IMG/VR virus record: IMGVR_UViG_3300045912_000789
Span: 96,001-160,000 of that record
DNA from: a virus
Length of the DNA: 64,000 nt
Reading direction: 5' to 3' (one strand)
The position numbers were made by a program, and so were the translations under genes. Positions 1,101-37,702 of this stretch are shown piece by piece. Within the stretch, counting starts at the first letter, position 1; every line of letters starts with the position of its first letter. Under the pieces are notes generated by a model. The model was not told the DNA's origin, ran no database searches, and was given only the letters and a program-made list of their open reading frames with translations.

Positions 1101-3185
1101 ATGACCGCCATGGATCTCTTCGTCAGCAAGCCCCAGCTCACGTTCCCTCCGGCCTCGGCCACGAAGGCTGCGTCGGCTCAGCTCGACGAGGACACCGAGT
1201 CGTGGCCGCGGCAGATCCTCACGGAGCTGTTCCGCACGACCCCCGAGACGAGCGACTACACGCCCCGCGTCGAGATGATGAAGGTCGACGAGGAGCAGGG
1301 CTACGGGCTCGGCGTGATCGTGATCGAGAACGCCACCGACAGTTCGCTGTCGATCGCCCGCACCGGTCCGACGAGCAAGCGTGTCCTCGTGCCGGTCGTC
1401 ATCAAGAACCACACGCTCTGCCCCCTCGATCTGATCATGCTCCGCTCGGGGCGCATGCTCCCGCTGAACGGCCACACGCTGCGCGAGGCGCTGTTCCGGC
1501 CGGAGACCTTCGAGATGATCACCGAGGACTGGGACGACACCTCGCTCTGGAACCAGTTCTACCCGCCGGGCCGCTCCGACAACGACTTCGGCGCCGGCAT
1601 CTCGCAGGGCATCGGCGGCGGCACCCAGGGCGCCGTCACGTTCATCCAGGGCCCCGGCATGAAGCTCAGCGCGGACTATGTCCTGCTGAAGGCGCTGGCG
1701 AGCACGATGTTCGCGCCGGACATCGAGGAGGTCGCCAAGGCGGCCAGCGTGCCCGGCGTCGCCGACGTGATGGTCGACACCAACTCGGCGCTGTTCGGGG
1801 CCGCTCGCGTCCTGGCGGAGGCCGAGAAGACCGCCCTGCGCGACGCCAGCGGGCTCCTGAAGTCCGCGAGCGTCTCGGCCCGGCCGGACGTCATCCAGAT
1901 GGGCTACGACGACGCCCAGGGCCGCTACTGGGTCAAGATGGCCAGCCGGTCGGCGTTCAGCGCGCCCCGCCCGGTGTTCATGGGCCGCGCCGAGGCGCTC
2001 AAGTTCGCCGGCGCCGAGGTCGTGTCGAAGGTCGACACTGAGGGGGTCGTGACCGTCAGTCCCACGCCGGTCAAGGCCACCGAGATCCAGCTCGACGCCT
2101 CGAAGTGGGCGATCGTCGACAAGCCCGGCATCTACAAGGTGAAGACGGTCCACGGCAAGGAGCAGGTCGGCTGGGTCATCCCGAACCTCGTCGATCTCGA
2201 CGGCACCTTCGTGCCGATGTCCGTGTTCACCAACGGCGCGGCGGCGATGGTCCAGGACCAGATCGTCGGCGCACACGTCGCGGCCGGCGTGGACCTGCCG
2301 AGCGGTCCGGCGAAGGGCACCGGGATCTTCTACTGCTCGGGCCAGGGCGGGGTGCAGGGCACCGTGCCGGTGCTCGTGCAGGGTTCCGAGGAGGGGATGA
2401 GCGGCGGCTCGTCGTTCCTCGTCCGCAGCCTCACCGGCGAGGAGACTCGGATCCGCCTGGTGCCCGGCCTGGCGAAGATGGTCGTCCTCAAGGGCGAGTT
2501 CCACATGCCGGCGGGGGCGAAGTTCCTCCCGCTCAACGAGGAGACCATGGTGCCGCTCGTCTCGGACGTCAGCGGCATCTCGAAGACCGCCGCGGACATG
2601 ACGCGGCCCACGATCACGCTGTTCGGAGGCGACGCCGACGAGGTGTCGGTGCGCTTCCAGGGGATGCCCAAGCTCGCAAGCGTCACGAACTCCCGTCTCA
2701 CCCACGACTCGGCGGCCTTCCTGCTCTGCCTCGCCGGAGCGCCCGCCAAGATCGCCCACACCAAGATCGCAGCCGCCGCCATGGGCCACACCGTCGAGGT
2801 GCTCGGCCTGCACGACGTGCGTCTCGCGACCGATCTCATCGAACAGACCCGCAAGACCGCCTCCGACCGCAGCCGCGAGGTGATGGCCCTGCGCCGTTAC
2901 CTCGTGAAGGAGGCCGCAGCGCTCCCGGATGCGATGACCGTCGACGCCGTCCTGTCGCTCGGCTTCATCAACTCCGAGAACGTGCGCACGTTCATCAGCA
3001 GCATCCCCTACCTGGAGAAGTGCCTCTCGAAGGTCTGCGAGCTGGTGCTCGGCAGCCGCCTCGGGCTCACGGAGATCCCGGAGTTCGCGGCGGCACGAGC
3101 GGCGCGCGCCCTCGACGAGGTGATCCAGGGTCTCAAGGCGCTCGCGCTGCGCGACGTCCAGGAGGGTGCATCGGCAGGTCGCTGA
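1101..3185 (+). CDS. Large putative virion/head protein of unknown function, rich in K-x-A motifs (alternative start 1110)
   Basis: 694-aa ORF with strong GC3 bias in the structural operon. Repeated TKAAS, EKTA, LKSAS, SKTAA, PKLAS, RKTAS, VKEAA. Confidence 0.6.
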   Translation: MTAMDLFVSKPQLTFPPASATKAASAQLDEDTESWPRQILTELFRTTPETSDYTPRVEMMKVDEEQGYGLGVIVIENATDSSLSIARTGPTSKRVLVPVVIKNHTLCPLDLIMLRSGRMLPLNGHTLREALFRPETFEMITEDWDDTSLWNQFYPPGRSDNDFGAGISQGIGGGTQGAVTFIQGPGMKLSADYVLLKALASTMFAPDIEEVAKAASVPGVADVMVDTNSALFGAARVLAEAEKTALRDASGLLKSASVSARPDVIQMGYDDAQGRYWVKMASRSAFSAPRPVFMGRAEALKFAGAEVVSKVDTEGVVTVSPTPVKATEIQLDASKWAIVDKPGIYKVKTVHGKEQVGWVIPNLVDLDGTFVPMSVFTNGAAAMVQDQIVGAHVAAGVDLPSGPAKGTGIFYCSGQGGVQGTVPVLVQGSEEGMSGGSSFLVRSLTGEETRIRLVPGLAKMVVLKGEFHMPAGAKFLPLNEETMVPLVSDVSGISKTAADMTRPTITLFGGDADEVSVRFQGMPKLASVTNSRLTHDSAAFLLCLAGAPAKIAHTKIAAAAMGHTVEVLGLHDVRLATDLIEQTRKTASDRSREVMALRRYLVKEAAALPDAMTVDAVLSLGFINSENVRTFISSIPYLEKCLSKVCELVLGSRLGLTEIPEFAAARAARALDEVIQGLKALALRDVQEGASAGR

Positions 3186-4515: not shown

Positions 4516-4714
4516 TCGTCATCCGGTAGGCCTTCGGGAAGCCAACGGAGAACGACGTGCCATGCGCGCGGTTGTACTCCTTGATGAACTTCTCGGAGGC
4601 CTGGCGGAACTGATCGCTGGGAGGCAAACTGAACCGGAACCACATCACCCCGTCCTGATCTCGCCGGGAGTCGGCGACCGCACTTCCCAGCCAGGTCAAG
4701 AACAGACCGGACAT
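4433..4714 (-). CDS. Possible small antisense hypothetical protein
   Basis: Fills the 4515-4713 gap with a protein-like core (DQDGVMWFRFSLPPSDQFRQASEKFIKEYN). Confidence 0.3.
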   Translation of the reverse strand: MSGLFLTWLGSAVADSRRDQDGVMWFRFSLPPSDQFRQASEKFIKEYNRAHGTSFSVGFPKAYRMTIREGRRSPRRSDGRSARGPSNGRGPAR

Positions 4715-10376: not shown

Positions 10377-10471
10377 GCGATTCCTGGTGCGTTGAGGGAT
10401 CCGATCCTGTATGTATTCCCCTAACGGGCCGAAGTAGGCTACCATTCGGCCAGATCCCCGTGGAGACCCTC

Positions 10472-11293
10472 ATGACCAGCCACGACACCTCCCCGTTCAT
10501 CGGGCGGTCCGTCGATCCCCAGAGCCTGGAGGCGATGGGGAAGCAGGCTGCCCGTGCCGCCGAGACGGCCGGGATCAGCATGACCGACGCCGTCGTCCAG
10601 ACGATCGGCCACGTCAAGCTGAACTCCGAGCAGGTCCGGCGCGTGGTCGAGTACGCCAACATCGAGATGTTCAACCGCAAGTTCGCGGCGATGTCGGGGT
10701 ACGTCCGCGCGGTCCACATCGACGGCGGTCCGGCGGACCCCGTCCAGGTCATGCAGAACCTCAACGATGCGGCTCGGCCGCGGGAGGTGATCGTGGACTC
10801 CATGGAGTACTCGATGCCGCCGGATCTCGTGAAGTCGTCGGGTGCGATGCACTTCGACTTCGTCCCGGAGCGCACGCGCGCCGGGGCGCTGGGCGAGGTG
10901 TACGCGCTCCAGTCGAAGCTCTCGTCAGCTCACGACGAGCTGGTGCAGAACTTCGAGGCCTCGAAGGAGCGCCTCTCGGAGGCCTTCACGCGCCTGATCG
11001 ATCAGGTGAAGTCGGCCTCCGCCGGCGGAGCAACCCCGGAGGAGATCTACGCGGCCTGGCACCGGGTCCACCCGGAGCTGGCGAAGATCGCCTACGACAA
11101 GCTCAAGGTCGCGATGCGCTCCGACAACGAGAAGGTCGCGGGTCGGATGATCAACCCGGACGCGAAGGTCGTCTCGATCTTCCGCGACTTCGTCAAGGAG
11201 TCGCTGAGCACCGAGGCGCACACCCACGCTCTGCGGAACGTCGAGGCCGAGCTGAGCAAGGTCTCGTCGTGGCTGCGGAAGCACGGAGGCTGA
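10472..11293 (+). CDS. Putative head/internal virion protein
   Basis: First gene of the head operon, RBS GGAG; VKSS, VKSAS and EKVA motifs. Confidence 0.65.
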   Translation: MTSHDTSPFIGRSVDPQSLEAMGKQAARAAETAGISMTDAVVQTIGHVKLNSEQVRRVVEYANIEMFNRKFAAMSGYVRAVHIDGGPADPVQVMQNLNDAARPREVIVDSMEYSMPPDLVKSSGAMHFDFVPERTRAGALGEVYALQSKLSSAHDELVQNFEASKERLSEAFTRLIDQVKSASAGGATPEEIYAAWHRVHPELAKIAYDKLKVAMRSDNEKVAGRMINPDAKVVSIFRDFVKESLSTEAHTHALRNVEAELSKVSSWLRKHGG

Positions 11294-11294: not shown

Positions 11295-11576
11295 GTGACG
11301 TACCGAGCAACCTCGAACGCGATCCAGCTCCTCAAGACCGCCTCGGCCCTCCAGACGGGTGAGCGGGCGGCGAAGGCTCTGAAGGGCCTCGTCGTCGGCG
11401 GCACCAACCTGGGTGCCGGGGTGGCCAAGGGACTCGATCTCCCCGAGAACGTCGGCCGGGCGGCGGCCATCGCCGGGATGGGCGGGGCCGCCTACGTCGG
11501 CGGCAAGCGCGTCAAGCGCAAGGCAGACGAGCTGAAGTTCCGGCTCATGTACGGCGACCCGGCCCAGTACTACTGA
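11295..11576 (+). CDS. Small Gly/Ala-rich putative virion protein
   Basis: LKTAS motif plus hydrophobic AAAIAGMGGAAYVGG. Confidence 0.6.
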   Translation: MTYRATSNAIQLLKTASALQTGERAAKALKGLVVGGTNLGAGVAKGLDLPENVGRAAAIAGMGGAAYVGGKRVKRKADELKFRLMYGDPAQYY

Positions 11577-11585: not shown

Positions 11586-12326
11586 ATGGCAGCCAAGTAC
11601 GCATCGGGCAGCAGCACGTTCGGCAAGCTCCTCTCGGACCCGCACTTCTGGGCGCCGGCCGTCGCGATGGGAGCCGGAGTCGCGGTGACCGGCGCGGCCG
11701 GGGCCGTCCAGAAGCTCGTCGACGCCAGGCAGCAGGCGCGGTCGTTCAAGGAGATGCTGGAGCTGCATCCGCAGCTCAAGACCCGGGATCAGGCGTTCGT
11801 GAAGCGCATCTACACGAGCCTCCACAACGTCAACCCGATGATGGCCCGCGACCCGATGGTCGCCGGAGCCTGGACCGACACGATCATCGAGAGCGGCGGG
11901 CTCGATCAGGGCGCCGCCGCTCGTGCGCTCCTCGAAGGCGTGAAGGACTTGGCGCAGATCCGGTCCTCGATCTCGCAGGCGAAGCAGCGCGAGACCAGCG
12001 CCCCGAAGGCCATCGGCGCCGGCGTCAGCCGGATGGTCGAGCACGGCTTCGCGCGAGGGAAGGAGCTGGAGCGCGAGCACGGCGATCTCGCCGCGGCCCA
12101 CAAGCAGATCAAGGACATCCAGGAGGCGGGCATCCAGGAGCGGGCCCACCGACGAATCGAGGGCCTGACCCGCGCCTACACCGACGCCGCCAGCCGCATG
12201 GAGAAGCTGGTGCAGGGCGGGCACGTGACGCCGCAGCGCGTCGACCAGCTCATGGGCGCCGTGATCAAGAAGCACAGTTCCGCGACGACTCCCGGACAGA
12301 AGCTCATCGCGGCCTGCCGAGGCTGA
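11586..12326 (+). CDS. Putative virion protein with N-terminal hydrophobic helix
   Basis: RBS GAGGAG; AKYAS; APAVAMGAGVAVTGAAGAV. Confidence 0.65.
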   Translation: MAAKYASGSSTFGKLLSDPHFWAPAVAMGAGVAVTGAAGAVQKLVDARQQARSFKEMLELHPQLKTRDQAFVKRIYTSLHNVNPMMARDPMVAGAWTDTIIESGGLDQGAAARALLEGVKDLAQIRSSISQAKQRETSAPKAIGAGVSRMVEHGFARGKELEREHGDLAAAHKQIKDIQEAGIQERAHRRIEGLTRAYTDAASRMEKLVQGGHVTPQRVDQLMGAVIKKHSSATTPGQKLIAACRG

Positions 12327-14107
12327 TGCACACGAAGCGCGCATACTTCGCCGGGGAGCACGACGGAGAACCCCTCGTCCAGATCGTGCGCCCCGGCGAG
12401 CAGGTCAAGACGGCGTCCTTCATGATGCCGTCCGTGCAGTCGTTCATCGATCGGCTGACACCAGATCCCCGCTACACGTACGTCCTCGTCAACGCGATGG
12501 GGTACAGCGAGTTCTACGGCTCGAACTCCAACCGCGACTGGTACGGCCACAACCAGCACCTCGACTTCAACGGGCTGCTGCACTCGCCGCCGGACTTCGG
12601 CAAGGACTACGAGACCGACAAGATGCAGGGCCTGGCGTGGCCCTACGGCTTCCCCAGCTACTACGGCGCGACCGTCTACGCCCACCACAAGAACACCGAT
12701 CCGCAGCAGCTCGGGTTCGGAGACGTGATCTACGTCGCCCCGAATCCGATCATGAAGCGCATCGAGCTGGTCGAGCGCGTGTTCAACGAGGAGGCCCAGA
12801 AGAAGGGGCACACCTCGATCCTGGAACGAATCGCCGCCGGAGAGCGGGTCGACGTCTCGATGGGCTGCAAGGTGCCCTTCGACTTCTGTTCGATCTGCAC
12901 CGACTGGGCACTCGTCAAGAAGGCCTGGAAGACCTTCAATCCCGACGAGCATCGCCACCCCGGCATCGCGATCCTGCACTTCCACAAGACGGTCCAGCCC
13001 ATCCGGGGGCTCGCGATTACCCGCAAGGACTACTGCGAGCACATGCTCCAGATCCCCGGGAAGATCCTACCCGACGGCCGCAAGGTCTTCGTCTACAACG
13101 ACTTCCCCCGCTTCTTCGACATCAGCTTCGTGCTCGTCGGTGCAGATCGCACTGCGCGTGTGATGTGGCACCTCGGGTCGACGAAGCCGACGGAGGGGAC
13201 GACGGCGGGTCCGTGGGCCAAGCGCGAGAACAGTATCGTGCGGCTGCTGGAGAACCTCCTCAACAAGACATCGGCGATCAACATCGCCTCGATGGAGAAG
13301 GAGATCCCCGACGGTTTCGCCCAAGCGGTGAAGCACGACAGCGACACCGCGCCCGACATCAGCGGGACCCTGACGGTGGTCCTGGACGGAGCCGAGGACC
13401 GGAAGCTGATGGCGAAGAAGATCCTCACGGCGCTCGCCGTGTTGGGCATCGTGCCGTCCCCGAGGGAGTTCCAGACCCTCGCCCTCACCCACGTGCCGGG
13501 CGGTGACCTGATCAAGAAGGCGCTCGACGAGAAGGGGGTGGTCTTCGACACCTCGGTCGGCGGGATCGACGACACCTTCAGCGTCAGCGAGAAGCTCTAC
13601 GACGCCAAGCTCACGCAGGCGTTCGCCCCGCTGATGTCCGAGCGGTCGAGCTTCGACCCCTTCCTGACCGAGCGCCTGACCAGCTTCGAGCCGAAGACGG
13701 CGTCCGCACCTGCGATGCCGATCCGCACGGAACTCCTCGACAAGCTGGCGTCCCAGTACAACGGCTACCGGATCTCTACGCTGGAGAACGCCGGGGATCT
13801 CTTCCCGAAGAGCGCCGAGTTCCTGGGTGCCCAGACGGTCGCCAAGATGGGCGGGAAGGGGATCGGCCTGGCCGCTCTTCTCCTCGGTCTGGGGCCCGTG
13901 ATATCTTTGCTTTCGTCGCACCTGCGTAGCAGGCGTGAAGAAGGGCAGCAGATCGGTACCATGGCTTCGTTCGTCGCCGACAATCCGAGCTTCGTGACCA
14001 TCACGACGATCGGCGCCGGTCTGCGAGCCGCCATGGCCATCGACAAGGCCGGAGGCCTGGTCCAAGCTGCGCGCTCTGTCGTCACGGCTGCACGAGGGGT
14101 GCTCTGA
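12326..14107 (+). CDS. Prohead (capsid maturation) protease with Zn-finger insertion and C-terminal extension
   Basis: VYAHH, RIAAGERVDVSMGCKVPFDFCSIC and FFDISFVLVGADRTARV match the HK97/herpes-type protease pattern (H...SxG...xSxVxxxAxxxA). Lies upstream of the scaffold and capsid genes. Confidence 0.75.
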   Translation: MHTKRAYFAGEHDGEPLVQIVRPGEQVKTASFMMPSVQSFIDRLTPDPRYTYVLVNAMGYSEFYGSNSNRDWYGHNQHLDFNGLLHSPPDFGKDYETDKMQGLAWPYGFPSYYGATVYAHHKNTDPQQLGFGDVIYVAPNPIMKRIELVERVFNEEAQKKGHTSILERIAAGERVDVSMGCKVPFDFCSICTDWALVKKAWKTFNPDEHRHPGIAILHFHKTVQPIRGLAITRKDYCEHMLQIPGKILPDGRKVFVYNDFPRFFDISFVLVGADRTARVMWHLGSTKPTEGTTAGPWAKRENSIVRLLENLLNKTSAINIASMEKEIPDGFAQAVKHDSDTAPDISGTLTVVLDGAEDRKLMAKKILTALAVLGIVPSPREFQTLALTHVPGGDLIKKALDEKGVVFDTSVGGIDDTFSVSEKLYDAKLTQAFAPLMSERSSFDPFLTERLTSFEPKTASAPAMPIRTELLDKLASQYNGYRISTLENAGDLFPKSAEFLGAQTVAKMGGKGIGLAALLLGLGPVISLLSSHLRSRREEGQQIGTMASFVADNPSFVTITTIGAGLRAAMAIDKAGGLVQAARSVVTAARGVL

Positions 14108-14169: not shown

Positions 14170-15258
14170 ATGGATCGCGAAACCGACATCTTCGACCTGG
14201 ACGTCCAGGGAACCTCCTCGGGCGACCTGGACGTCGATCTCGCCAACGCGGGCCACGTCCTCCAGAAGCTCGCCGAGGAGGAGGGCGTCGATCTGAACGC
14301 CCTCTCGGACGCGGACGTGGCGGACCTCGTCAGGGATCTTCTCCGCCCCGAGGGTCCGAACGCACAGACCACCCAGGAGACCCGGAAGGAAGCCAGCGCC
14401 ATGAGCACCGAGACCCAGCCCCTCCCCAACGAGCCGACCTACGCCGACGTGGCGGTCGAGCTGAGCAAGATCGCCGCCGCCGAGGGCATCGATCTCTCGA
14501 AGGTCTCCCGCGAGGAGTACCACGAGGCGTTCGCCAGCCTCGCCGAGCAGATGGCCGACCCCGAGTACGGCCAGGCGAAGGAGGCCGAGGAGGCGAAGCT
14601 CGCCGAGGCCTACGCGCAGGGCCAGCGCATGGCCGACGGCTTCCTCGATCGCCTCAAGGAGGCGGAGGACGAGGCCGAGAAGAAGGAGAAGGAGCGCAAG
14701 GAGAAGGAGGGCGAGGAGGGCAAGAAGGAGGCCGCCGGCGCCGTCCGTGCCGCGCTCCACGGCGCGAAGGACAAGGCGAAGAAGATGCTCGGCAAGGGCG
14801 TCGGGCACGCCGTCCGCGCGGGCGAGAAGGTCCGCGGCGCCGCGTCCTCGGCCGCCAAGGGCGAGCGCGAGTTCCACGAGCGCCTCGGCAAGGGCATGCC
14901 CGAGGGCCTGACCCACGCCGTCGCGAAGCGCATGGAGGGCCCCGCGAAGGATCGCCTCAGCCGTGCGCGCACCGCGGTCGGTCGCGGTGCCACGGCGGCC
15001 GGCGCGGCCGGTGCCGCGGGCGCGGCGGGCGCGGGCTACGCGGCGGGGCGCTCGAAGGAGAGCCTCGACGAGGCGGCGCTCCAGATCGCGGCCGAGATGG
15101 TCCGCGAGATGGGCTTCGATCCCTCCACCGGCGAGAAGCTCGCCGAGGCGCACGTCCCGGCCGAGCCCACCGCCGACGCGGACGGCTGGACCGAGGACGA
15201 GATCGCCGAGCGCGCGGTCGAGTTCATGAAGGAGGCGGGCTACCTCGCCCAGGAGTGA
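14170..15258 (+). CDS. Scaffold/internal head protein (acidic, helical, many KLA/KEA motifs)
   Basis: RBS AAGGA; located between the protease and the capsid gene. Confidence 0.6.
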   Translation: MDRETDIFDLDVQGTSSGDLDVDLANAGHVLQKLAEEEGVDLNALSDADVADLVRDLLRPEGPNAQTTQETRKEASAMSTETQPLPNEPTYADVAVELSKIAAAEGIDLSKVSREEYHEAFASLAEQMADPEYGQAKEAEEAKLAEAYAQGQRMADGFLDRLKEAEDEAEKKEKERKEKEGEEGKKEAAGAVRAALHGAKDKAKKMLGKGVGHAVRAGEKVRGAASSAAKGEREFHERLGKGMPEGLTHAVAKRMEGPAKDRLSRARTAVGRGATAAGAAGAAGAAGAGYAAGRSKESLDEAALQIAAEMVREMGFDPSTGEKLAEAHVPAEPTADADGWTEDEIAERAVEFMKEAGYLAQE

Positions 15259-15480: not shown

Positions 15481-16650
15481 ATGACGACCCTCGCCGACAT
15501 CGTGAACAACGCGCTCTCCCAGTCGGAGAGCAGCCTCAAGCTCGCTTCGGCCCGTGACGCGGCGCCGGCCGTCGAGGGAAGCTCGCTGGCCTTCCTCGAC
15601 GCGGAGCTGGCCCTGCCGACCTCGACGCCGAAGCTCGCCTCGGACGACGAGGACGAGGACGATCGCCGTCCTCCGAAGAAGGACGAGAAGAAGGAGCCGG
15701 AGAAGAAGGCGTCCGTCCACGAGATCGTGGAAGACGCCGACTACGCGATGAAGCTCGCGGAGGCCCTGACGCTCGGCTCGAACATCGTCGCCGCGAAGCT
15801 CGCGTCCGACGGCACCGCGCTCGGCGCTCCCGGACCGCAGGTCCACCAGAGCGGGATGCAGCACGCCCCCACGATCCCGAAGGCGCACTCGAAGGTCAAG
15901 GAGACGATCTCGGGTCCGGCGACCAACGCCGGCCCGAACGGCCTGCCGACCTCGAAGGCGGACTTCACGTCGCCCAACGACCAGTCGGGCCGCGCGAAGA
16001 ACCACCCCGGCAAGACCGCCGCCGACGAGGCGTGGACGAAGTCGAAGACGGCCTCGATCCGCCTCATGCGCGCGAAGACGGCGCAGGCCGAGACGCTCAT
16101 CGAGCTGGGCCAGATCGCGGCGGCCGAGAAGCTGCTCGACGAGGTCCGGGCCGAGCAGGCGAAGCTCGCGCAGGACCCCTCCTCGCCCCCGCCGGTCATG
16201 CCGGCCCACAGCGAGTCGTTCAAGCTCGACACCGAGCCCGGCCCGTCCACGCACATCGGCGACAACGCCGCGCTGATCTCGCTGACGAAGAGCGAGGCGC
16301 GCGACAAGACCACGCGCGAGGCCTCGCAGTACATCAGCGAGCCGCCCAAGAAGGACAACGCGGTCGGCGCGCACATGCTGCGGACCGACGGTCAGAAGCT
16401 GAGCCACCTCGTGCTCCCCGGCGCGCGCAAGACCGCGTCGGCGCAGCCCGCGACGGCCCCGGCTCCCACGACCCCCACCACCGAGAAGAAGGCGTCGATG
16501 GACCCCGCGGTCGGCCGCGCCTACCTCTCGAAGCTCGTCAAGACCGCCGGCGATCCCGAGGCGATGCCCCAGGAGCGCGCGAAGGCCGCCGAGGCCATCA
16601 AGGCGATCAAGGCCAAGATCGGGGTGGACCCCGAGGCTCTCCTGAGCTGA
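15481..16650 (+). CDS. Scaffold/internal head protein, about 12 K-x-A motifs
   Basis: RBS GAGGA; low complexity; LKLAS, PKLAS, AKLAS, GKTAA, SKTAS, RKTAS, VKTAG. Confidence 0.65.
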   Translation: MTTLADIVNNALSQSESSLKLASARDAAPAVEGSSLAFLDAELALPTSTPKLASDDEDEDDRRPPKKDEKKEPEKKASVHEIVEDADYAMKLAEALTLGSNIVAAKLASDGTALGAPGPQVHQSGMQHAPTIPKAHSKVKETISGPATNAGPNGLPTSKADFTSPNDQSGRAKNHPGKTAADEAWTKSKTASIRLMRAKTAQAETLIELGQIAAAEKLLDEVRAEQAKLAQDPSSPPPVMPAHSESFKLDTEPGPSTHIGDNAALISLTKSEARDKTTREASQYISEPPKKDNAVGAHMLRTDGQKLSHLVLPGARKTASAQPATAPAPTTPTTEKKASMDPAVGRAYLSKLVKTAGDPEAMPQERAKAAEAIKAIKAKIGVDPEALLS

Positions 16651-16675: not shown

Positions 16676-17080
16676 ATGAACAACATGGAGAAGGTGGCGC
16701 ACGAGGTGCCCGGCATCATGCAGGCGGCCTCGCAGCACCTCGTCAAGCTCGCCGGGAAGAACGTCGAGCTGGTGAAGCGAGCGGAGGCCGCGGAGCACGA
16801 GAACCGCGTCATGAAGCTCGCACGTCGGATGGAGATCCGCGGGCTGCACACGAACCTGTCCTTCGAGGACAAGATCGCGCAGCTCATGGAGGTCCCTCTC
16901 GACAAGCTCGCGACGATGGAGCAGGCGGTCGAGATGGCCGCCGGCGGCGTGCGGCTCGGGAAGGTCGCGGAGACCGACTCGGGCAGCAAGATCGCGTCGT
17001 CCGGCTACGAGCCGTCCGGGGGTTCCTCGGACGTCGACGAGCTGGAGGTCTTCATCGAGAGTCAGGCGGCTCTCACCTGA
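16676..17080 (+). CDS. Small coiled-coil scaffold-like protein
   Basis: RBS AAGGAG; seven K-x-A motifs in 134 aa. Confidence 0.65.
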   Translation: MNNMEKVAHEVPGIMQAASQHLVKLAGKNVELVKRAEAAEHENRVMKLARRMEIRGLHTNLSFEDKIAQLMEVPLDKLATMEQAVEMAAGGVRLGKVAETDSGSKIASSGYEPSGGSSDVDELEVFIESQAALT

Positions 17081-20751: not shown

Positions 20752-22506
20752 ATGAGCCACTACGCAGAACTGGACCAGGAGATCGTCGCTCTCGGAAACG
20801 GGGCGACTTCGGGCATCTCGCGCGCCGACGCGACGGTGTTCGTCCACGCGCTGCGCAAGCTCGCCGCGCAGGGCGCGCCGGCACCGGATGCCGACCTCGC
20901 CGAGCACGCGACCGAGGTCGCGATGGGCGAGGAGGCTTCGCCCGCCGAGGCCGCGATGCACACGCAGGCCGGGGTGCCGGACGAGAGCGGCCACCTCGAA
21001 GGCGAGTTCGCCGTCCCGCTCGACCAGGTCGTCATGACCCTCGCGCAGATCGTCTCGAACAGCATGCGGCAGCACACCGCGTACTCGTTCTACGGCGAGA
21101 TGATGCGAGATCTCGGGCGCGGCGAGCTGGCCGAGCTGTTCGACGAGCAGGGCAAGGACGAGATGAAGGAGATGAAGTACTTCCTTCGTCGGATGTCCGT
21201 GCTCCACCCGGGCGGCGTGCCGATCCCGGTGGCGCCGACGCCGGAGCCCAGCGCCGACGTCTCGGTCGCACTGCGCTACCTCATCGCCGGCGAGCAGCAG
21301 GCGATCGTCCTGTTCAAGACGCTGCACTCGATGCTCGGGGACAACCCGATGAAGTACACCATCGAGCAGACGATGACAGACGCCCAGGAGCACCTCGATC
21401 GTCTCTGGCAGTACATGCCGGCGACCGAGGCTCCGAAGCAGGCCGGCGCCAAGATCGCGAGCGTCATCACGCGCATGAAGCTCGCGGCGCGCACCGGGGC
21501 AGAGACCGCGCTCGGTCAGGCACTCCAGCAGGGCGTCGAGAAGCCCACGGCGAGCAAGCAGGCGTCGCCCCAGTGGCCCTCGCCGAGCCCCGGGGCGATC
21601 CCCGTGGGGCAGCCCGGCACTGAGCCGCTCAGCACGGTCATCGGTCGCGAGGCGCTGCTCCAGCAGGCGCAGCTCATGAACGAGAACCAGGACCTGCGTG
21701 CGCGCATGGACCAGGCCGCTCAGCAGCAGCTCATGGCGCAGCAGCAGCTCGAAAGCCTCGGCGCGGAGAACGAGAACCTCCAGATGCAGGCCATGCAGGC
21801 CAGCGATCAGGCGCAGATGGCGACCGAGCAGGCGCAGCTCTCCAGCGAGCAGGCGGCGGCGCAGGCGGACGCGAAGATGCGGCTCGCGATCCGCGTGCAG
21901 CAGCTCCGCCAGAACCTCGCCGACATCGTCTCGGCCGACCCCGTCCAGGAGGAGGGTGTCGGCTTCGGCGAGCAGGCCGGCCCCGGCAGCGTCGCGACGT
22001 CGTCGCAGCAGAACCAGATGGCCCAGCAGGCCGCCGCCATGGACCCCACCGGCGGCACCGGCGGAGCCCCCACCCAGGAGGCCGCCGAGGAACAGCAGCA
22101 GGCCGCCAACGCGCAGCAGGAGGCTCAGCAGCAGACCGCCCAGGCCCAGCAGAAGACCAAGGCGGACAGCTCGAAGCCGAAGGGCAAGGGCGGCACGACG
22201 GTCTCCGTGAAGACCTCGGGCATGCCCTCGCTCGTCAAGAAGCCGCTCGTCGAGGCGGGTCACGCGATCGGCGAGGGCATCGGGCAGCACCTCGAACAGG
22301 CCGGCAGCGACGCCATGCGCGGCGGGCTGAAGACGCTCAAGGAGCGCGTCCGCGCCTACGGCAAGGACCCGAAGGTCGTCGGCGGGGCTGCGCTCGCCGC
22401 CGGCGGCTACGTCGGCGCGAAGGCGCACGGCATCAAGAAGCAGCACGAGCGCGACCGAACCCAGAAGGACATCCTGAAGGCCGTCCAGTCGATGGCGAAC
22501 CGCTGA
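20752..22506 (+). CDS. Modular putative head protein: bacterioferritin-like four-helix bundle, Gln-rich coiled coil and Gly-zipper tail
   Basis: DEMKEMKYFLRRM...AGEQQAI...DAQEHLDRL aligns by eye with the Bfr helices. Confidence 0.65.
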   Translation: MSHYAELDQEIVALGNGATSGISRADATVFVHALRKLAAQGAPAPDADLAEHATEVAMGEEASPAEAAMHTQAGVPDESGHLEGEFAVPLDQVVMTLAQIVSNSMRQHTAYSFYGEMMRDLGRGELAELFDEQGKDEMKEMKYFLRRMSVLHPGGVPIPVAPTPEPSADVSVALRYLIAGEQQAIVLFKTLHSMLGDNPMKYTIEQTMTDAQEHLDRLWQYMPATEAPKQAGAKIASVITRMKLAARTGAETALGQALQQGVEKPTASKQASPQWPSPSPGAIPVGQPGTEPLSTVIGREALLQQAQLMNENQDLRARMDQAAQQQLMAQQQLESLGAENENLQMQAMQASDQAQMATEQAQLSSEQAAAQADAKMRLAIRVQQLRQNLADIVSADPVQEEGVGFGEQAGPGSVATSSQQNQMAQQAAAMDPTGGTGGAPTQEAAEEQQQAANAQQEAQQQTAQAQQKTKADSSKPKGKGGTTVSVKTSGMPSLVKKPLVEAGHAIGEGIGQHLEQAGSDAMRGGLKTLKERVRAYGKDPKVVGGAALAAGGYVGAKAHGIKKQHERDRTQKDILKAVQSMANR

Positions 22507-22517: not shown

Positions 22518-24329
22518 ATGAGCCACGTCAACGATCTGGAGGACTTCGTCAACGATCTCTCCGCCCCGGTGAAGATCGCGGAGACGGACCTCGACAACCT
22601 CAGCCTCCCCGAGCTGGAGGCCCTCATGGGTCTCGATCTCACGGAGGACAACGAGAAGGTCGCGTACCTCAACGCCTGCGTGAAGAGCGCGTACGGCGAC
22701 GACCGGTACGGGTCCTGGCTCGATCAGTTCGCCGGCTCGCCGCTGCACGCGAAGGCCCTCCAGCTCTGCGAGGAGGAGCTGGGTCTGGAGCAGGAGCGGC
22801 TCCAGCGTCGGATCGAGCGGCAGGAGCAGAACCAGGGCGACGACGACATCTGGACGCGGCAGGACATGCTGCGACTCCAGAAGGACATGCTCATGCTGGA
22901 GCTGCACAAGTCGAAGGCCGGTCCCGGAGGCGGCAAGGACCCGACGATGCAGCCCCAGGCCGGCGCGGGGCCCGCGGCCGAGGCGCCCCCGAAGCCGGGC
23001 AAGACCACCCCGCCCAAGGAGGGCAAGACCGCCTCGGACGTCCAGACGGTCGGCCAGATCAACAACGGAGACCCGGCCCAGCCGTCGTGGCCTCGCGCCT
23101 CGCTCGGCGTGGACGCGGCGGGTCGGCGGGCGACCCCCGAGGAGGAAGCCGCCCAGGGGCGCGCCGACACCCACGTGCAGCACCGTGATCCCGTCACGAA
23201 GTCGGCGGGCGCGGCGACGCAGCTCGGCGAGGCCGTGATGAAGCGCATCGATCGCGCGCCGGGCGCCGTCCAGCGCGGGGTCGGGATGCTCCACAACGTC
23301 GGCGCTCGGCTGGGCGCGAAGTCCACCGAGAGCGCGGTCGGGCGCGGCATCATGGCGGCCGGCGGGGCTGCGGCGGGAGCAGGTGCGCTCGGTGCCGGGG
23401 CACTCGCCTCGCGCAAGAAGGAGTCCAGCGATCTCACAACTTCGGAGCGCGAGGACCTCAAGAAGAAGCAGTTCGCGCTGCCGGAGAAGAGGAAGTACCC
23501 GATCCCCGACGAGGCCCATGCCCGCAACGCGCTCGCTCGCGCGGCACAGTTCGCTTCGCCCGAGGAGCAGAAGCGCATCCGGGCGGCCGTCGATCGGAAG
23601 TTCCCCGGCATCCAGCTCACCAGCGCCAGCAAGCCGGCGAAGCCCACGGTCGGTCTGCACCACGTGCCCGACAGCAAGAAGGAGTCCTCGCTCCTCGCGG
23701 CCGTGGGGGGCCACCGCGGCCTCCCTTTCGGCGATGAGGGCAAGATCGCGAGCGTCATGAGCACGCTCGCGATGGATGCCGGGTCGCAGGCGAAGCACCT
23801 CGCGCGCATGGGGTCCTACGCCCGCAACGTGCAGAAGGTCCCGCACGCCGTGGTCGCCGCTCGCAACGCGGAGATGCGTGCGTTCACCCCGAAGGCGCTC
23901 CCGACGGCCGCCGCGGCAGCCACCCACACCCCGCCCCCGGTCGCAGTGACGGTGGCCAAGAAGAAGACCCCCACGCAGGCGATCGACCCGATGGCGCTGT
24001 CGCGTCATCTCGCCCAGACCAACCCCCAGCAGGCCATCCAGGCCGGGCGGCAGTTCGGGGCGCCGGTGGTCGGCAACGCGGCGGTGCTCGATCAGCTCTC
24101 GCAGATGAGTTTCGGCAAGCTCAGCGTGAGCAAGAGCTGGATCACTCGCGTCATCCGGCGGGCGAAGGCCACCAAGCTGCGGGTTCGGGACTCCGCTCAG
24201 AAGCATGAGGCAGCGTGGTGGGATCACCGCGTGAAGGGGACCGAACTCACGGACGCGGCCAAGAAGCGCGGCTTGGCTGCTGACGAGCTAGCCGACAAGT
24301 TCAAGAGCATGAAGGGAGCCATGAGCTGA
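22518..24329 (+). CDS. Modular putative head protein with DUF6582-like domain
   Basis: LTTSEREDLKKKQFALPEKRKYPIPDEAHARNALAR; many K-x-A/S motifs. Confidence 0.65.
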   Translation: MSHVNDLEDFVNDLSAPVKIAETDLDNLSLPELEALMGLDLTEDNEKVAYLNACVKSAYGDDRYGSWLDQFAGSPLHAKALQLCEEELGLEQERLQRRIERQEQNQGDDDIWTRQDMLRLQKDMLMLELHKSKAGPGGGKDPTMQPQAGAGPAAEAPPKPGKTTPPKEGKTASDVQTVGQINNGDPAQPSWPRASLGVDAAGRRATPEEEAAQGRADTHVQHRDPVTKSAGAATQLGEAVMKRIDRAPGAVQRGVGMLHNVGARLGAKSTESAVGRGIMAAGGAAAGAGALGAGALASRKKESSDLTTSEREDLKKKQFALPEKRKYPIPDEAHARNALARAAQFASPEEQKRIRAAVDRKFPGIQLTSASKPAKPTVGLHHVPDSKKESSLLAAVGGHRGLPFGDEGKIASVMSTLAMDAGSQAKHLARMGSYARNVQKVPHAVVAARNAEMRAFTPKALPTAAAAATHTPPPVAVTVAKKKTPTQAIDPMALSRHLAQTNPQQAIQAGRQFGAPVVGNAAVLDQLSQMSFGKLSVSKSWITRVIRRAKATKLRVRDSAQKHEAAWWDHRVKGTELTDAAKKRGLAADELADKFKSMKGAMS

Positions 24330-25240: not shown

Positions 25241-25830
25241 TGCGATCCGAAGCACCGAGCGAGAAGAGCTACCACCGCGCCATCCACCGGCGCGACGTCG
25301 CCGAGGGCGCGGCCAAGGGCGGGCTCGTCGGGGCGGTCGCCGGGGCCGGCCTGAAGCGCCTGGGCCACAAGGCGGGCCCGCTCGCCGGCGCGGCCCTGGG
25401 AACCCTCGTGGGCGGGGGAGCTGGGCATCTGAAGGGCAGGGAGCGTACGCTTCGGGACACGACCACCCAGGAGCGTCAGCACATGCGCACCGAAGCACGA
25501 ACGAAGAAGAGCAGCGTCGAGGACGCCTTCATGCAGGGCTTCGAGGACGGGATGGCGAAGGAGGCCGTCCTGCCCGCGCTCGCGGCGGTCGGTGCACGCG
25601 TCGCGCCCATGCTCGCGCGGGCGACGCCGATGCTGGCGAACCTCGGGCGCTCGCTCGTGGGCGGCGGCATGCGTGCGGCGAACGCCGTGGGCATGGGCCA
25701 GATGGCGACCGATCTCGTCCGCAAGGGCGTCCGCTCGTCGCCGAACTTCATGCGCAACGCCGGCATCGCCGGCATCGGTGCGGGCGCGGCCGGGCTCGCC
25801 GGCGCCGGGTACATGGCAGGACGAAGCTGA
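25240..25830 (+). CDS. Gly-zipper protein (putative internal/ejection protein)
   Basis: GGLVGAVAGAG, GAALGTLVGGG, GIAGIGAGAAG; AFMQGFEDGMAKEA. Confidence 0.6.
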   Translation: MRSEAPSEKSYHRAIHRRDVAEGAAKGGLVGAVAGAGLKRLGHKAGPLAGAALGTLVGGGAGHLKGRERTLRDTTTQERQHMRTEARTKKSSVEDAFMQGFEDGMAKEAVLPALAAVGARVAPMLARATPMLANLGRSLVGGGMRAANAVGMGQMATDLVRKGVRSSPNFMRNAGIAGIGAGAAGLAGAGYMAGRS

Positions 25831-26387
25831 TGGATCCGGTCTTCGACACGTTCGGGGAGAAGGTCGCGGCGCTCACCCCCATGGTGCGCCCCGGCCTCCT
25901 CGAACGTTCGCAGTTCAAGCTGATGCGGACCCGGGCGCCGAGCGCGCCCCGGGCTCCGATGCCCGGCACCTTCGGGATCTCGACGAAGACCGCCGTCGGG
26001 GTCGACGACATCAGCACTGTCGTCCACGAGGATCCACTGCCCTCGACGCACAAGGGCCTCGCTCGGAAGAAGACGGCCATGGTCCACCCGTCGATGCAGG
26101 CGCCGTCCGAGACGATGACCCGCGAGAAGTGGAAGCAGACGTTCAAGGACGTCCCGATCTCCATCCTCGCCGGCGGCGTGGGCTACGGCATCGGCCGGAC
26201 GCTCGCCGAGGTGATCGGCGAGAAGACCGTCGGCAAGATCATGGTCGAGGGTGGTGGCACGCTGAACGCCACGATGCGACCTGGGTGGGTGAAGGCCATG
26301 CCGTTCGTGACGGCAGCCCTCACTGCCGGCGGCGCGTACGCCGGCAGCCGGCTCCGCGAGGGGCTGAAGAAGCGGAGGGAGGGGTGA
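25830..26387 (+). CDS. Putative internal virion protein with two hydrophobic helices
   Basis: VFDTFGEKVAAL, TKTA and KKTA motifs. Confidence 0.6.
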   Translation: MDPVFDTFGEKVAALTPMVRPGLLERSQFKLMRTRAPSAPRAPMPGTFGISTKTAVGVDDISTVVHEDPLPSTHKGLARKKTAMVHPSMQAPSETMTREKWKQTFKDVPISILAGGVGYGIGRTLAEVIGEKTVGKIMVEGGGTLNATMRPGWVKAMPFVTAALTAGGAYAGSRLREGLKKRREG

Positions 26388-30200: not shown

Positions 30201-30325
30201 TGCTGAAGAGCTTCGAGGTCAACGCCATCCGGCAGTCGGCCTCCGCGCCCGACACGCTGGAGATCGACGTCACCGTCGGGGTGCTCTACCCGCTCAACTA
30301 CATCAAGATCACCCTGGTGATCTGA
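27221..30325 (+). CDS. Tail sheath protein (1034 aa, with insertion domains)
   Basis: N-terminal RPSVQVIQE. C-terminal HQLTTD...ETSITRALDFTAK...IDVTVGVLYPLNYIKITLVI is typical of contractile sheaths. Confidence 0.85.
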   Translation: MASPTIERPSVQVIQEFRTVSPTILVPTMPACVMGPCVQVVEAVQDDGSLNPEARIALPARIPFAFVSSPFEYAAIGTDALEVSVNNAAAEQVVFPTGPNLTVDQVADAINEEAIPGLLAVVETSGTQKRVVIYTTVTGENASLEIGAGTHADVIAAFGITRGYRNVGASGYNNYWALRLGKPDYPDPRDIIDEVTIDFDTVRLFINDGSGTVREALRTESFLDGATAAVTVQDDGDGDNLSPYLNFAGAVFHDKPAQLVGTVDWTTLTYPGDFGVLTLEIIINGVTVVVTFANPADATAAALAINTALGVNGTCVLNGSNQPVITSAITGAGSSVEIGAAGTINEATIGLAVGSYAAGRPSRARAQGITDLTAVVYASDVQGRVLRMSVDGEQFQQLVMPVTVVSAATLVSAINALWGNIASLNGANRLVLRSLATFGGRESEIRVDKTASDATLLTAIGLTGVSAPFQTVSVVYGNAFSPLVGDEVWVNGVRVGEITEVPATPDNRLRLSAEQLLTYTGSSWMIVAKGLDNSAATATRPSSDLRVDVTSGAVRTKHNLFRESNGTPTNVGPLATYLAYNALRKDVSPAGTDFNLLRFGTTTDLEAALAPLDTQNPLGLGMYFALLNAPGVEVTGLGVDETSDTEPEGSLASYVRAFEYLESKDVYGIAPLTHANAVGQVGQVHVDELSKPENGLERIVILNPSRPTRKADTLVASAATANVAGPPTNVVNTGIADLQAKLAALGKPGPTYVEADGVYLKFEDDENLYLIESVSGPNATVNDGPLSASNTLFKDGGGSPLFTTAIVDRPVSVFILGGSLGSRTDEADAYAAIARGYLDRRVICTAPDTAKASIDGLETQLAGYYLAAALAGKMSAVSPSQPLTNETLAGFTGVIGSQDRYSEMQLKILSGGGLWVFYQEADGQPVKTRHQLTTDMTSIEKRETSITRALDFTAKFIRAGLKNFIGRFNITQNVQDAISIVIDGLAAFLIRQGVLKSFEVNAIRQSASAPDTLEIDVTVGVLYPLNYIKITLVI

Positions 30326-30333: not shown

Positions 30334-30633
30334 ATGCCCGAGTTCCGCTACGACAACGTCGCGCGCGCCTTCGACGAGGAGCTGGAGAAGGAGATGCTCC
30401 AGCACTCGTCAGAGAAGGCGGCGAAGCACCAGCCGGAGCCCGAGTCGGGCATCCAGCGCATCGCCAAGGGCAAGACCCCGCTCGACGAGGTCAAGGCCAT
30501 CATCGACGCCTCGCGCTCCAAGAGCGCCGCGCAAGAGGTCGCGGAGCATCGGGTTCGCGGGAAGCTCGCCGCTCTCCGCGACGGGCCGCGGGAGCAGGTC
30601 GAGCAGTTCATCAACCTCGCGAAGAACGGCTGA
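30334..30633 (+). CDS. Small K-x-A-motif protein
   Basis: MPEFRYDNVARAFDEELEKEM...SKSAA...GKLAA. Confidence 0.6.
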   Translation: MPEFRYDNVARAFDEELEKEMLQHSSEKAAKHQPEPESGIQRIAKGKTPLDEVKAIIDASRSKSAAQEVAEHRVRGKLAALRDGPREQVEQFINLAKNG

Positions 30634-35816: not shown

Positions 35817-35911
35817 GTTGCTCTCCTCGTTCGACGAGTCCATCTCGCCGATCAAGAGCTGATAGGGATCCGCTTTCCCAGTTCGCGGCCTCTGGGCTAT
35901 ACTCGCGGGCG

Positions 35912-37702
35912 ATGGCTGCCCACAAGCTCCAAGGCCGGATGAAGCTCTACGGGTTCGAGATCTCGATCGAGAACGCGAAGGGCTCCGTGCGTCGGTGGTA
36001 CGACCCTCACGGCAAGGAGAAGGGCCACACCAAGATGCACTTCGACTACGGGTACATCCGTGGGACGAAGGGCACCGACGGTGATCACGTCGACGTCTAC
36101 GTCGGGCCAAACCCGGAGTCCGATCGAGTCTTCATCGTGAACCAGATGAAGAAGCCACCGGTCGACACCGACGGCGCGTGGACGCGCTTCGACGAGCAGA
36201 AGGTGATGCTGGCGTTCAAGGACGCCGCCGCGGCCAAGGCCGCCTACCTCAAGCAGTACGACGATCCGCGCTTCTTCGGCGGGATGAAGGAGATGTCCGT
36301 GGACGACTTCAAGACGAAGGTCATGGCTCGCGAGAACCACGGCAAGAAAATCGCGCAGGACGCCGCCCGGCTTGGACGGCTCTACGCGGAGCTGAACCTG
36401 GCACGCCTCGCCGGCGACGAGCCCATCGTGATGCCGAAGCTCGCCAAGAGCGAGCTGCTGGGAGAGGGGACGCCTGGTATCAGCACGCTGCCGGCGATCA
36501 CCAACTACGCTCAGGCCACGATGTCGAAGCAGGAGCGCAAGGAGGCCGACCGCGAGATGAAGACGTCGGGTCTCTCCCACACCCACGAGACGACCCGCGG
36601 GCTTTCCAGGAAGGCGATCACCGAAGGCAAGCGCGTCGAGGCCGAGCACACCGACGACCCCAACACGGCGCGCCAGATCGCGATCGATCATCTCCACGAA
36701 GACCCGCAATACTACGAGAAGCTGAAGAAGGTGGAGAAGCACGCGGCCGACGACCGGGTGAGCCGCATCGCCGATCGGGTCGACGACGTCGGTCTGGCGA
36801 TGCTCGGGGCTCCGAGCGCAGCGTACCTGACCGGCAGCGTGCTGAAGCGGCTGCCCAGCGCGAAGGCGCGCGCAGCGGGCGTCGGTCTCCAGCACGGGGT
36901 GGAGAAGCTCCGCGCCGGTGTCCACCACGGCGTCGAGGCCGCCGGGCTCGCGCTCGTCTCGCCGACCGTCTCGCATGCCATCGCGAGGAAGATCGACGAG
37001 AAGACGAAGAAGGCCAACGGCGACATGGCCCAGTACTTCATGGACCACCCGGAGAAGCTCAAGGAGAAGCAGGAGCGAGACCGGGCGAAGAAGGCCGAGC
37101 TGGAGAAGATCGCCCAGAGCATCTTCTCCGACTACGAGTACAAGACCGAGAGCGAGAAGACCGCGATCATCGCGATGCTCGGTCGGATGGGCGGGCTCGC
37201 CAGCCGGGCGGGCAAGGCGGTGTCCGGTGGGGCTCGGGCGGCGACCGCCGCGGCGGGGCAGGCCGCCGGACGCGCCAGCTCGGGGCTCAGCTCGGCCGTC
37301 GCCCGCGCCGGCGACAAGCTCAAGGGCGGGTTCATCGCCGGCGAGCGCGGCGTCAGCCAGGCCGTCGGGGAGCGTGCAGCGCGCATGGCGCGGACCCCCG
37401 GCTCGGCCATCTCGAAGGTCCCGGCGGTGACCCCGCCAGCCAGCGTGGCCAAGGGGGGCGTCCCGACCCCCGTCCCGACCACCACGGCGGCTCCTGCGGC
37501 CTCCGCAGCGGCTCCGAGGGGGTCGGGGAAGTGGAACCCCCTGAGCGCTCGAAACCTCGTCCTGGCCGGCGGTGGCGCCGCGCTGGGGCTCGGGGCGTAC
37601 GGTGGCTACAAGGGGATCCAGACGGCCTCGAACCTGCTCCAGACGCACCACGAGGCGCCGCTGGCGCCCCCGGGGTTCGCCGGTACCGGGCGGGTGTTCT
37701 AG
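35912..37702 (+). CDS. Modular protein: InPase-like (inorganic pyrophosphatase-like) domain, DUF5661-like domain and Ala/Gly-rich helices
   Basis: ISIENAKGSVR...DYGYIRGTKGTDGDHVDVYVGP...FDEQKVML; GKRVEAEHTDD...IAIDHLHEDPQYYEKL. Confidence 0.75.
   Translation: MAAHKLQGRMKLYGFEISIENAKGSVRRWYDPHGKEKGHTKMHFDYGYIRGTKGTDGDHVDVYVGPNPESDRVFIVNQMKKPPVDTDGAWTRFDEQKVMLAFKDAAAAKAAYLKQYDDPRFFGGMKEMSVDDFKTKVMARENHGKKIAQDAARLGRLYAELNLARLAGDEPIVMPKLAKSELLGEGTPGISTLPAITNYAQATMSKQERKEADREMKTSGLSHTHETTRGLSRKAITEGKRVEAEHTDDPNTARQIAIDHLHEDPQYYEKLKKVEKHAADDRVSRIADRVDDVGLAMLGAPSAAYLTGSVLKRLPSAKARAAGVGLQHGVEKLRAGVHHGVEAAGLALVSPTVSHAIARKIDEKTKKANGDMAQYFMDHPEKLKEKQERDRAKKAELEKIAQSIFSDYEYKTESEKTAIIAMLGRMGGLASRAGKAVSGGARAATAAAGQAAGRASSGLSSAVARAGDKLKGGFIAGERGVSQAVGERAARMARTPGSAISKVPAVTPPASVAKGGVPTPVPTTTAAPAASAAAPRGSGKWNPLSARNLVLAGGGAALGLGAYGGYKGIQTASNLLQTHHEAPLAPPGFAGTGRVF

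Follow-up and report, generated by a model that had tools for sequence, protein, structure and literature searches.

The DNA considered here, referred to as the window, is a stretch of 64,000 nucleotides (bases 96001-160000) of the virus record IMGVR_UViG_3300045912_000789, a complete genome of 171,909 bp, with 64-70% guanine-cytosine (GC) content, from an uncultured phage of ∼172 kb. Genes were called from codon usage, and open reading frames (ORFs) are named by their first nucleotide. The window contains a head module in which the gene for a putative capsid-maturation protease, ORF 12326, has scaffold-like genes as neighbours and the major capsid gene downstream. The order of the head genes is 10460, 11295, 11586, the protease gene 12326, the Ala/Glu/Lys-rich 14170, 15481, 16676, 17131 and the capsid gene 17667, and this order is the same in relatives and in Salmonella phage Arash. 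The proteins of this module carry many copies of a short motif, K-x-A followed by Ser, Ala or Gly (K-x-A-[SAG]), and it is the probable role of this motif as a signal for the neighbouring protease that concerns us here. The central features are as follows.

12326..14107, plus strand: capsid-maturation (prohead) serine protease, 593 residues, assigned from fold, alignment and AlphaFold model
12407..12418, plus strand: K28-T-A-S31 of the protease, predicted N-terminal self-processing site, in a conserved column with low predicted local distance difference test (pLDDT) scores
17667..18782, plus strand: HK97-fold major capsid protein, 371 residues (NCBIfam capsid_Caudo_2, E 1e-10)
17724-17735, plus strand: K20-I-A-A23, near the N-terminus of the capsid protein

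An initial annotation of this DNA had described a K-x-[AS] motif as dense in 14 ORFs and, by eye, sparse in the terminase, tube, neck and enzyme genes. Counting against composition-shuffled sequences bears this out in part: K-[TLIVSEQA]-[AS] occurs 88 times in the 14 named ORFs taken together, compared with 38.9 expected (z 8.7), whereas the remaining 66 ORFs of the window are at expectation (51 copies, 53.3 expected). When Ser, Ala or Gly is required as the fourth residue, the same 14 ORFs hold 48 copies where 11.8 are expected (z 10.9). The signal also emerges from an unbiased scan that scored every three-letter and gapped pattern across the window proteome: K.AS ranks first among the gapped tripeptides (29 copies, 6.3 expected, p 4e-11), and KTAS heads the 4-mers. 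Over the whole genome K.AS is found 37 times, against an expectation of 14.4, and is concentrated in the head ORFs and in one gene that lies outside the window (78632-80206 in genome coordinates).

For a core set of 11 head-module ORFs, K.A[SAG] is present 43 times compared with 11.6 expected, giving a z of ∼10 under global shuffles and of 10.1 when residues are shuffled inside 15-residue blocks, where the maximum in 300 shuffles was 21. The reversed motif, [SAG]A.K, occurs 10 times in these ORFs, which is background, and the other 195 genes of the genome hold K.A[SAG] at background. Position is also distinctive, in that all 11 head ORFs have a K-x-A within residues 4-40, a property shared by only 37 of 176 (21%) other proteins. 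At the nucleotide level, 29 sites are encoded by 25 distinct 12-mers that draw on both Ser codon families, and matches to the corresponding degenerate DNA pattern number 29 in frame 0 and one in frame 1; a DNA-level motif was rejected on these grounds. The enrichment acts on protein, not DNA.

The motif is thus real, but narrower than first described. Taken singly, and with the three-residue form, ORFs 1101, 10460, 14170, 15481 and 16676 are enriched relative to composition shuffles; ORFs 12326, 20752 and 22518 become so only once [SAG] is added as the fourth residue; ORFs 25830 and 30334 are borderline; and four others that had been listed as carriers, ORFs 11295, 11586, 25237 and 35912, are not individually enriched. 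The seven copies reported for ORF 16676 agree with our count, while ORF 15481, said to hold about 12, has 14.

Relatives were drawn from two IMG/VR scans, which gave 83 loci with a protease 30-64% identical to that of ORF 12326 and with locus GC contents of 48-66%. ORFs on the protease strand of these loci contain 2234 copies of K.A[SAG], where 650 are expected and the reversed motif is found 630 times; ORFs on the opposite strand contain 62, compared with 51 expected. Scans of the individual positions define the signal more closely. At position 1, Lys alone is enriched (3.4-fold, with Arg at 0.85), and at position 3, Ala alone. Ser had been proposed as an alternative to Ala at this third position, and is not part of the signal: K.S[SAG] stands at 1.06 times expectation, K.A[SAG] at 3.40 times. 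The x position shows a preference for Thr, with Leu, Val and Ile coming next. Enrichment at position 4 is 6.7-fold for Ser, followed by Ala, Phe and Glu, and Pro, Val and Ile are depleted directly after the motif Ala. Upstream there are preferences for Met, Phe or Leu at -2 and for Glu at -4 and -1, so that the longer variant originally suggested, F-x-[DE]-x-[LFM]-x-K-x-A, survives in its -2 and -4 positions, without its Phe at -6, which is not enriched.

Conservation in homologues, suggested at the outset as a check, follows the same lines. The Lys and Ala of the motif have conservation scores of 0.53 and 0.55, about twice those of other Lys and Ala residues in the same proteins (0.25 and 0.29) and of the flanks (0.25; p ∼1e-6). 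Orthologue alignments show many sites that hold their position as K-x-A-[S/A/G] amid changing surroundings, and the sequence contexts of different sites are otherwise dissimilar. The pattern extends to Arash (53% GC) and to the low-GC, Bacillus-type phage G, where it again appears near the protease homologues; in Arash, gp220, gp223 and gp225 are motif-rich. A position weight matrix built from distant relatives discriminated no more than modestly between head sites and the rest (16 of the 23 top sites), and is not relied upon. Over-representation that is confined to head proteins and kept among relatives is what would be expected of a cleavage motif for a prohead protease. That the motif behaves as a selected processing signal is, on these sequence comparisons, well supported: it is directional, protein-level, conserved in position and common to the 83 loci.

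The proposed protease was recognised from its fold. The AlphaFold model of ORF 12326, calculated from a 60-sequence alignment, has a pLDDT of 84.6 (a single-sequence input gave only 34), with low values exactly at residues 27-30 and 289-326. It can be divided into a predicted propeptide (residues 1-30), a catalytic domain (∼31-288), a flexible linker (289-326) and a helical C-terminal domain (327-593) that contains K457-T-A-S and K473-L-A-S. Structural alignment of residues 44-285 with VIA-align matches T4 gp21 (5jbl) with Z 9.0 and a root-mean-square deviation of 2.8 Å over 131 of 165 residues, and the proteases of varicella-zoster virus (VZV), human cytomegalovirus (HCMV) and KSHV (Kaposi's sarcoma-associated herpesvirus) with Z 9.0, 6.7 and 6.3, respectively. 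The top Foldseek matches in the PDB are all herpesvirus proteases, but weak (E 0.13), while a viral structure library yields 87 matches at E <= 0.001, including phage G gp19 (9e-12), many of them labelled prohead protease or COG3740. On the predicted model, then, the product of ORF 12326-14107 is by fold a capsid-maturation serine protease, as the initial annotation had supposed.

Profile searches give little for this protein. The protease ORF has no PHROG, Pfam (E <= 0.1) or NCBIfam match, and searches of these three databases found nothing for the protease or for most of the motif carriers; a profile search of PDB sequences also gave no match. The Peptidase_S77 profile (PF03420) matches nothing in the whole genome at E <= 1, nor does the Peptidase_S78 profile (PF04586) match anywhere in it. 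Because there is no S77, S78 or ClpP family profile match elsewhere in the genome, ORF 12326 is the only detectable capsid-protease candidate.

An alignment of 60 homologues (30-50% identity) shows His121, Ser178, Asp186 and Asp265, among other residues, to be invariant. Lys28 and Ala30 are at least 90% conserved; K-x-A is present at this column in 57 of the 60 sequences, followed by Ser in 19, Ala in 17 and Gly in nine. Further K-x-A columns lie downstream of the catalytic domain, at reference positions 282, 299, 313 and 319, and the homologues together contain 207 copies of K.A[SAG] compared with 45 expected. The four copies originally noted in the protease itself are all present, as VKTAS (residue 28), NKTSA (314), PKTAS (457) and DKLAS (473). 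A propeptide site, a catalytic domain and linker sites, in that order, make up the layout that would be expected, by analogy with known enzymes, for self-processing. The family is very large: a library clustered at 50% identity contains 1,956 of its representatives at E <= 0.001, almost all of them uncultured. By tblastn, the only cultured phages with an ORF 12326 homologue are Arash, three Vibrio phages and phage G.

Two other features of the protease family deserve mention. Many of the homologues are 900-1350 residues long, with one to three insertions at ∼181-192, 237 and 285. In one of 90% identity (P0001), the insert that immediately follows S178-M-G carries Hint, LAGLIDADG and intein-splicing domains and is an intein, and another (P0003) has two inteins; to our knowledge, inteins in a capsid protease, beside the presumed catalytic Ser, are unusual. 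Separately, residues 508-530 of the protease, in its helical C-terminal domain, are hydrophobic and rich in Gly, Ala and Leu (GIGLAALLLGLGPVISLL), resembling a membrane or oligomerisation segment, and ORF 20752 ends with a similar stretch.

The capsid protein encoded by ORF 17667 is homologous to those of Arash and phage G. The KIA that had been noticed near its N-terminus is indeed found at residues 20-22, and K-[ILVM]-A is present at approximately residues 20-29 in all 44 capsid homologues with an aligned N-terminus. Phage G is the only relative for which we found a mapped capsid terminus. Its capsid protein is encoded as 282 residues and processed to 255, with the loss of 27, as established by N-terminal sequencing (PMC5646251, Table 1); the masses that we compute for the two forms, 31.2 and 28.2 kDa, agree with that report. 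The cut maps after Ala27, RVALA|QAMA, with Ala at P1.

The remaining carriers of the motif are mostly proteins of the head module, as follows.

1101..3185, plus strand: head-associated protein of unknown fold, 694 residues, with 10 K-x-A-[SAG] sites, the first at residue 22
10460..11293, plus strand: head-module protein related to Arash gp220, 277 residues, with sites at 28, 76 (KFAA), 184 and 225
11295..11576, plus strand: small head-module protein, 93 residues, with one K-T-A-S at residue 14
14170..15258, plus strand: scaffold-like Ala/Glu/Lys-rich protein, 362 residues, with sites at 33, 73, 100 and 186
15481..16650, plus strand: low-complexity head protein, 389 residues, with nine K-x-A-[SAG] sites, of which seven are K-x-A-S
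16676..17080, plus strand: small head protein, 134 residues, with seven K-x-A sites
20752..22506, plus strand: head-module protein with a ferritin-like domain at 97-218, 584 residues (Pfam Ferritin, E 1.8e-6)
22518..24329, plus strand: head-module protein, 603 residues, with sites at residues 170, 228 and 409
25830..26387, plus strand: borderline carrier, 185 residues, with KVAA at residue 11 (3 copies, 0.9 expected, p 0.04)
30334..30633, plus strand: borderline carrier, 99 residues (3 copies, 1.0 expected, p 0.06)

The enrichment in several of these proteins is large. ORF 1101 has 10 copies of K-x-A-[SAG] where 1.03 are expected (p 1e-7), and in its orthologues the sites are kept at alignment columns 281, 303, 497, 526, 557, 587 and 605. 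In ORF 10460, K-[TLIVSEQA]-[AS] occurs nine times (1.8 expected), and across 57 homologues its motif Lys and Ala have conservation scores of 0.73 and 0.72, compared with 0.23 for the flanks. The same three-residue form is found 11 times in ORF 14170 (3.7 expected, p 0.002) and 14 times in ORF 15481 (5.5 expected), the latter having seven copies of the four-residue form where 1.7 are expected and sites at residues 20, 189 and 317 that are kept in orthologues. ORF 16676 (7 copies, 1.1 expected, z 6.2) keeps sites at alignment columns 11, 29, 82 and 111, and the single K-T-A-S of ORF 11295 is conserved in its L002 orthologue. In character, ORFs 15481, 14170 and 16676 are close to scaffold or core proteins of the kind that is fragmented, and for proteins with 9-14 sites in fewer than 400 residues, ORF 15481 among them, the degradation of core or scaffold for removal is at least as good a reading as the release of modules.

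A different arrangement is seen in ORF 20752, which has six copies of K-x-A-[SAG] compared with 1.1 expected. Its K-x-A sites, at residue 36 and in the region 229-272, flank the ferritin-like domain, and all three orthologues retain KLAA at alignment columns 40 and 254. This placement fits the release of a folded module. One viral-library structure match is named 'Ferritin/DPS protein domain containing protein', and ORF 20752 could be a ferritin- or Dps-like protein packaged inside the capsid, recalling the ferritin-like cargo of encapsulins. In ORF 22518, which has five copies of the four-residue motif (1.7 expected, p 0.03), K-E-S-S at 301 and 388 flanks a small conserved domain (phrog_16160, DUF6582, at 305-365).

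Beyond the window, the gene at 78632-80206 of the genome (plus strand) encodes a protein of 524 residues with nine K-x-A-[SAG] sites, where 0.97 are expected, and two K-L-A-S within its first 36 residues. It has no Pfam match, and is probably a further substrate that is encoded away from the head module. ORF 35912-37702 (plus strand), one of the ORFs originally listed as carriers, has an N-terminal InPase domain (PF18823, E 1e-38) and DUF5661; a longer frame, from 35090, matches PHROG families labelled minor head protein, DarB-like or endolysin.

What, then, is the function of the motif? We put at about 0.7 the probability that K-x-A-[S/A/G] serves as the signal recognised by a serine protease for capsid maturation that the phage itself encodes, the product of ORF 12326-14107. 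From the features described above we infer that the motif is a cleavage site, that the product of ORF 12326 is the enzyme responsible and that the bond cut is the one after the Ala. This position of the bond seems the most likely, and would give K-x-A the same P3-x-P1 register as the L/I-x-E sites of T4, the S/A/G-x-E sites of phiKZ and SPN3US and the V/L/I-x-A|S sites of assemblin. The preference for Ser, Ala or Gly at position 4, together with the depletion of Pro, Val and Ile, fits a P1' subsite, and the phage G cut after Ala27 supports Ala at P1. The interpretation offered by the initial annotation is thus supported in part, as regards the protease and the processing signal, although not for Ser at position 3. 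It had also proposed that the motif targets proteins to the capsid; by eye, the N-terminal leaders are alike only in the motif and in a hydrophobic residue at -2, and a separate capsid-targeting function is therefore speculative, as is its idea that polyproteins are cut into injected modules.

We envisage that the protease is made as a 593-residue precursor comprising the propeptide, a catalytic domain with the gp21/assemblin fold, the flexible linker and the helical tail. Its release would take place within the assembled prohead, through self-cleavage at K28-T-A-S31, in the linker that follows the catalytic domain, or at both. The freed enzyme would then shorten the major capsid protein and about ten head proteins by an N-terminal leader of 14-36 residues, and cut the multi-site products of ORFs 15481, 1101, 14170 and 16676 into fragments. 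Such fragmentation may serve to clear scaffold from the head or to set folded modules free, the ferritin-like domain of ORF 20752, for example.

Several observations weigh against this proposal. Sequence homology to T4 gp21 is undetectable, either with Pfam profiles, including PF03420, or with hhalign (probability 0.2). Some copies of the motif lie inside confidently predicted helices, as with K473-L-A-S in the helix 469-487, so that not all copies can be accessible. In the capsid protein, the residue after the site is Ala, Glu or Gln and not Ser. The mapped phage G site, RVALA|QAMA, has a residue other than Lys at P3, and its cut lies two residues past R-V-A, the aligned counterpart of the K-I-A of ORF 17667, so that the register and the role proposed for the Lys are tentative. 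In virion mass spectrometry of Arash, the homologues of motif-rich proteins were detected at 80-100% coverage, which at face value means that uncut molecules exist; the table is too coarse to define termini, and many enzymes that are probably not components of the virion were present in the same preparation. The set of 11 head ORFs was chosen after inspection of the data, though the unbiased scans and the relatives back the same set. Finally, cleavage at K-x-A is deduced from sequence in this phage and in its relatives alike.

Some of these points would suit a motif that is not cut at all, a binding or assembly signal in the form of a contact peptide that docks core or scaffold proteins onto the protease, the portal or the inner surface of the capsid. 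A role of this kind would be in keeping with the one copy that each head ORF has in its first 40 residues, with the copies found within well-ordered helices, with peptide coverage of up to 100% for the Arash virion homologues and with a mapped phage G capsid cut that is not at K-x-A. We nevertheless regard it as unlikely. Docking hardly explains proteins with 9-14 copies along their whole length, and small residues at positions 3 and 4, with Pro, Val and Ile depleted after the Ala, are typical of protease subsites. Moreover, the copies in the protease flank its catalytic domain in flexible segments, as do the sites at which gp21, SPN3US gp245 and assemblin process themselves (PMC9958956, PMC5694885, PMC4498786).

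Alternatively, the motif could be a cleavage signal that is read by a host enzyme or by a different phage protease, given that the link between this specificity and ORF 12326 is indirect. There is precedent in the staphylococcal phage 80alpha, whose capsid and scaffold proteins are processed by a host protease. Here, however, the motif travels with the protease family across GC contents and hosts, from phage G and Salmonella phage Arash to uncultured phages of 48-66% GC; its best-conserved sites are in the protease itself, and the genome has no other detectable capsid-protease family, all of which makes another enzyme improbable. It is also conceivable that the pattern is a functionless by-product of composition, low complexity, helix propensity or shared ancestry, since the carriers are rich in Ala and Lys and several have helical or low-complexity stretches. 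A cause in composition or low complexity was rejected on the z values of ∼10 from both global and local shuffles and the background level of the reversed motif. As the contexts of the sites are otherwise dissimilar, conservation of the motif residues is about double that of the remaining Lys and Ala in these proteins and the same enrichment recurs in relatives from 48% to 66% GC, we consider a by-product highly improbable, and favour recognition by the product of ORF 12326.

Other features of the genome provide the setting for the head module.

4713-6548: large terminase
27221-30325: tail sheath
Minus strand: type II topoisomerase

The portal gene is just beyond the edge of the window, at 83221-85143 of the genome. 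A megablast search with 7.7 kb of the window against GenBank phages found no match. In the whole window proteome, C-x-x-C is over-represented (17 copies, 2.8 expected), which probably reflects several small zinc-binding proteins. ORF 61018-62136 (plus strand) encodes 372 residues with no lysine at all, compared with a proteome average of ∼5% Lys.

Head maturation by a dedicated protease is well known, and three established systems invite comparison. The best structural match to ORF 12326, T4 gp21 (MEROPS S77, PDB 5JBL), is likewise a single protease that processes the capsid protein together with many core proteins, removing short N-terminal leaders; its substrates, with (L/I)-x-Glu sites, include gp23, gp24, gp22, gp67, gp68, internal proteins and Alt. 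It is activated by N-terminal self-cleavage (PMC9958956). The enzyme proposed here differs in its predicted specificity, with Ala rather than Glu at P1 and Lys rather than Leu or Ile at P3, and in size, since gp21 has 212 residues whereas ORF 12326 has 593 and a long helical C-terminal domain. The phiKZ gp175 and SPN3US gp245 proteases (MEROPS S80) serve large myophage heads, where many proteins undergo processing at one short motif. Propeptides contain additional copies of that motif, and SPN3US gp245 removes its own C-terminus (PMC5694885). In these phages the cut, mapped by mass spectrometry, is always after Glu in (S/A/G)-x-Glu or A-x-Glu, whereas Lys-x-Ala is predicted here from sequence. 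A specificity unlike the motifs ending in Glu, as first suggested, is thus what the K-x-A signal implies when set against the Glu-P1 sites of T4, phiKZ and SPN3US (PMC5694885).

The closest parallel for a cut after Ala is found in the herpesvirus assemblins (MEROPS S21), represented by pUL26 of pseudorabies virus (PrV) and the enzymes of herpes simplex virus, HCMV and VZV. In these, as in ORF 12326, an N-terminal protease is fused to a scaffold-like C-terminal part. Assemblin cuts after Ala at its release (R) and maturation (M) sites, YLQA-T and VQA-S in PrV, and frees itself from the C-terminal scaffold at the R site (PMC4498786). There are differences, however: assemblin has a Ser-His-His triad, has Val, Leu or Ile rather than Lys at P3, shows no sequence similarity and restricts its cutting to a small number of sites in its precursor and scaffold, compared with the ∼ten different proteins proposed here.

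True sequence homologues of the catalytic domain are Bacillus/Lysinibacillus phage G gp19 and Salmonella phage Arash gp222 (E 2e-8 to 1e-16, identity 25-26%). In gp19, K-x-A-[SAG] sites again flank the catalytic domain, in a protein without the long C-terminal domain. It has been annotated as a head maturation protease (PMC12484599). The proteases of the HK97 gp4 type (Peptidase_S78, COG3740) occupy the same position in the head gene order and account for many of the structural matches in the viral library (E 1e-5 to 1e-4). For enzymes of this type, the main task is the removal of a single capsid delta domain, not the processing of a large number of proteins.

Few phage enzymes have had their cleavage rules measured, and those considered here, for T4, phiKZ, 201phi2-1 and SPN3US, all specify a cut after Glu; a limited search of the open-access literature found no Lys-x-Ala specificity for a phage protease. 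That a large and almost wholly uncultured clade of proteases, reaching as far as phage G and Arash, has an assemblin-like specificity, with cleavage after Ala and before Ser and with Lys at P3, is a tentative proposal to which we give somewhat less than an even chance. If it is correct, the boundaries of mature capsid, scaffold and internal proteins would become predictable from sequence for hundreds of uncultured large phages, as well as for Arash and phage G, and head proteins that are probably degraded could be told apart from those that give rise to folded modules. The processed head proteome could then be read from sequence, including a ferritin-like cargo released inside the capsid. Ala at P1 with Ser at P1' would, moreover, be a second likeness between phage and herpesvirus proteases, extending their kinship from the fold to the substrate rule.

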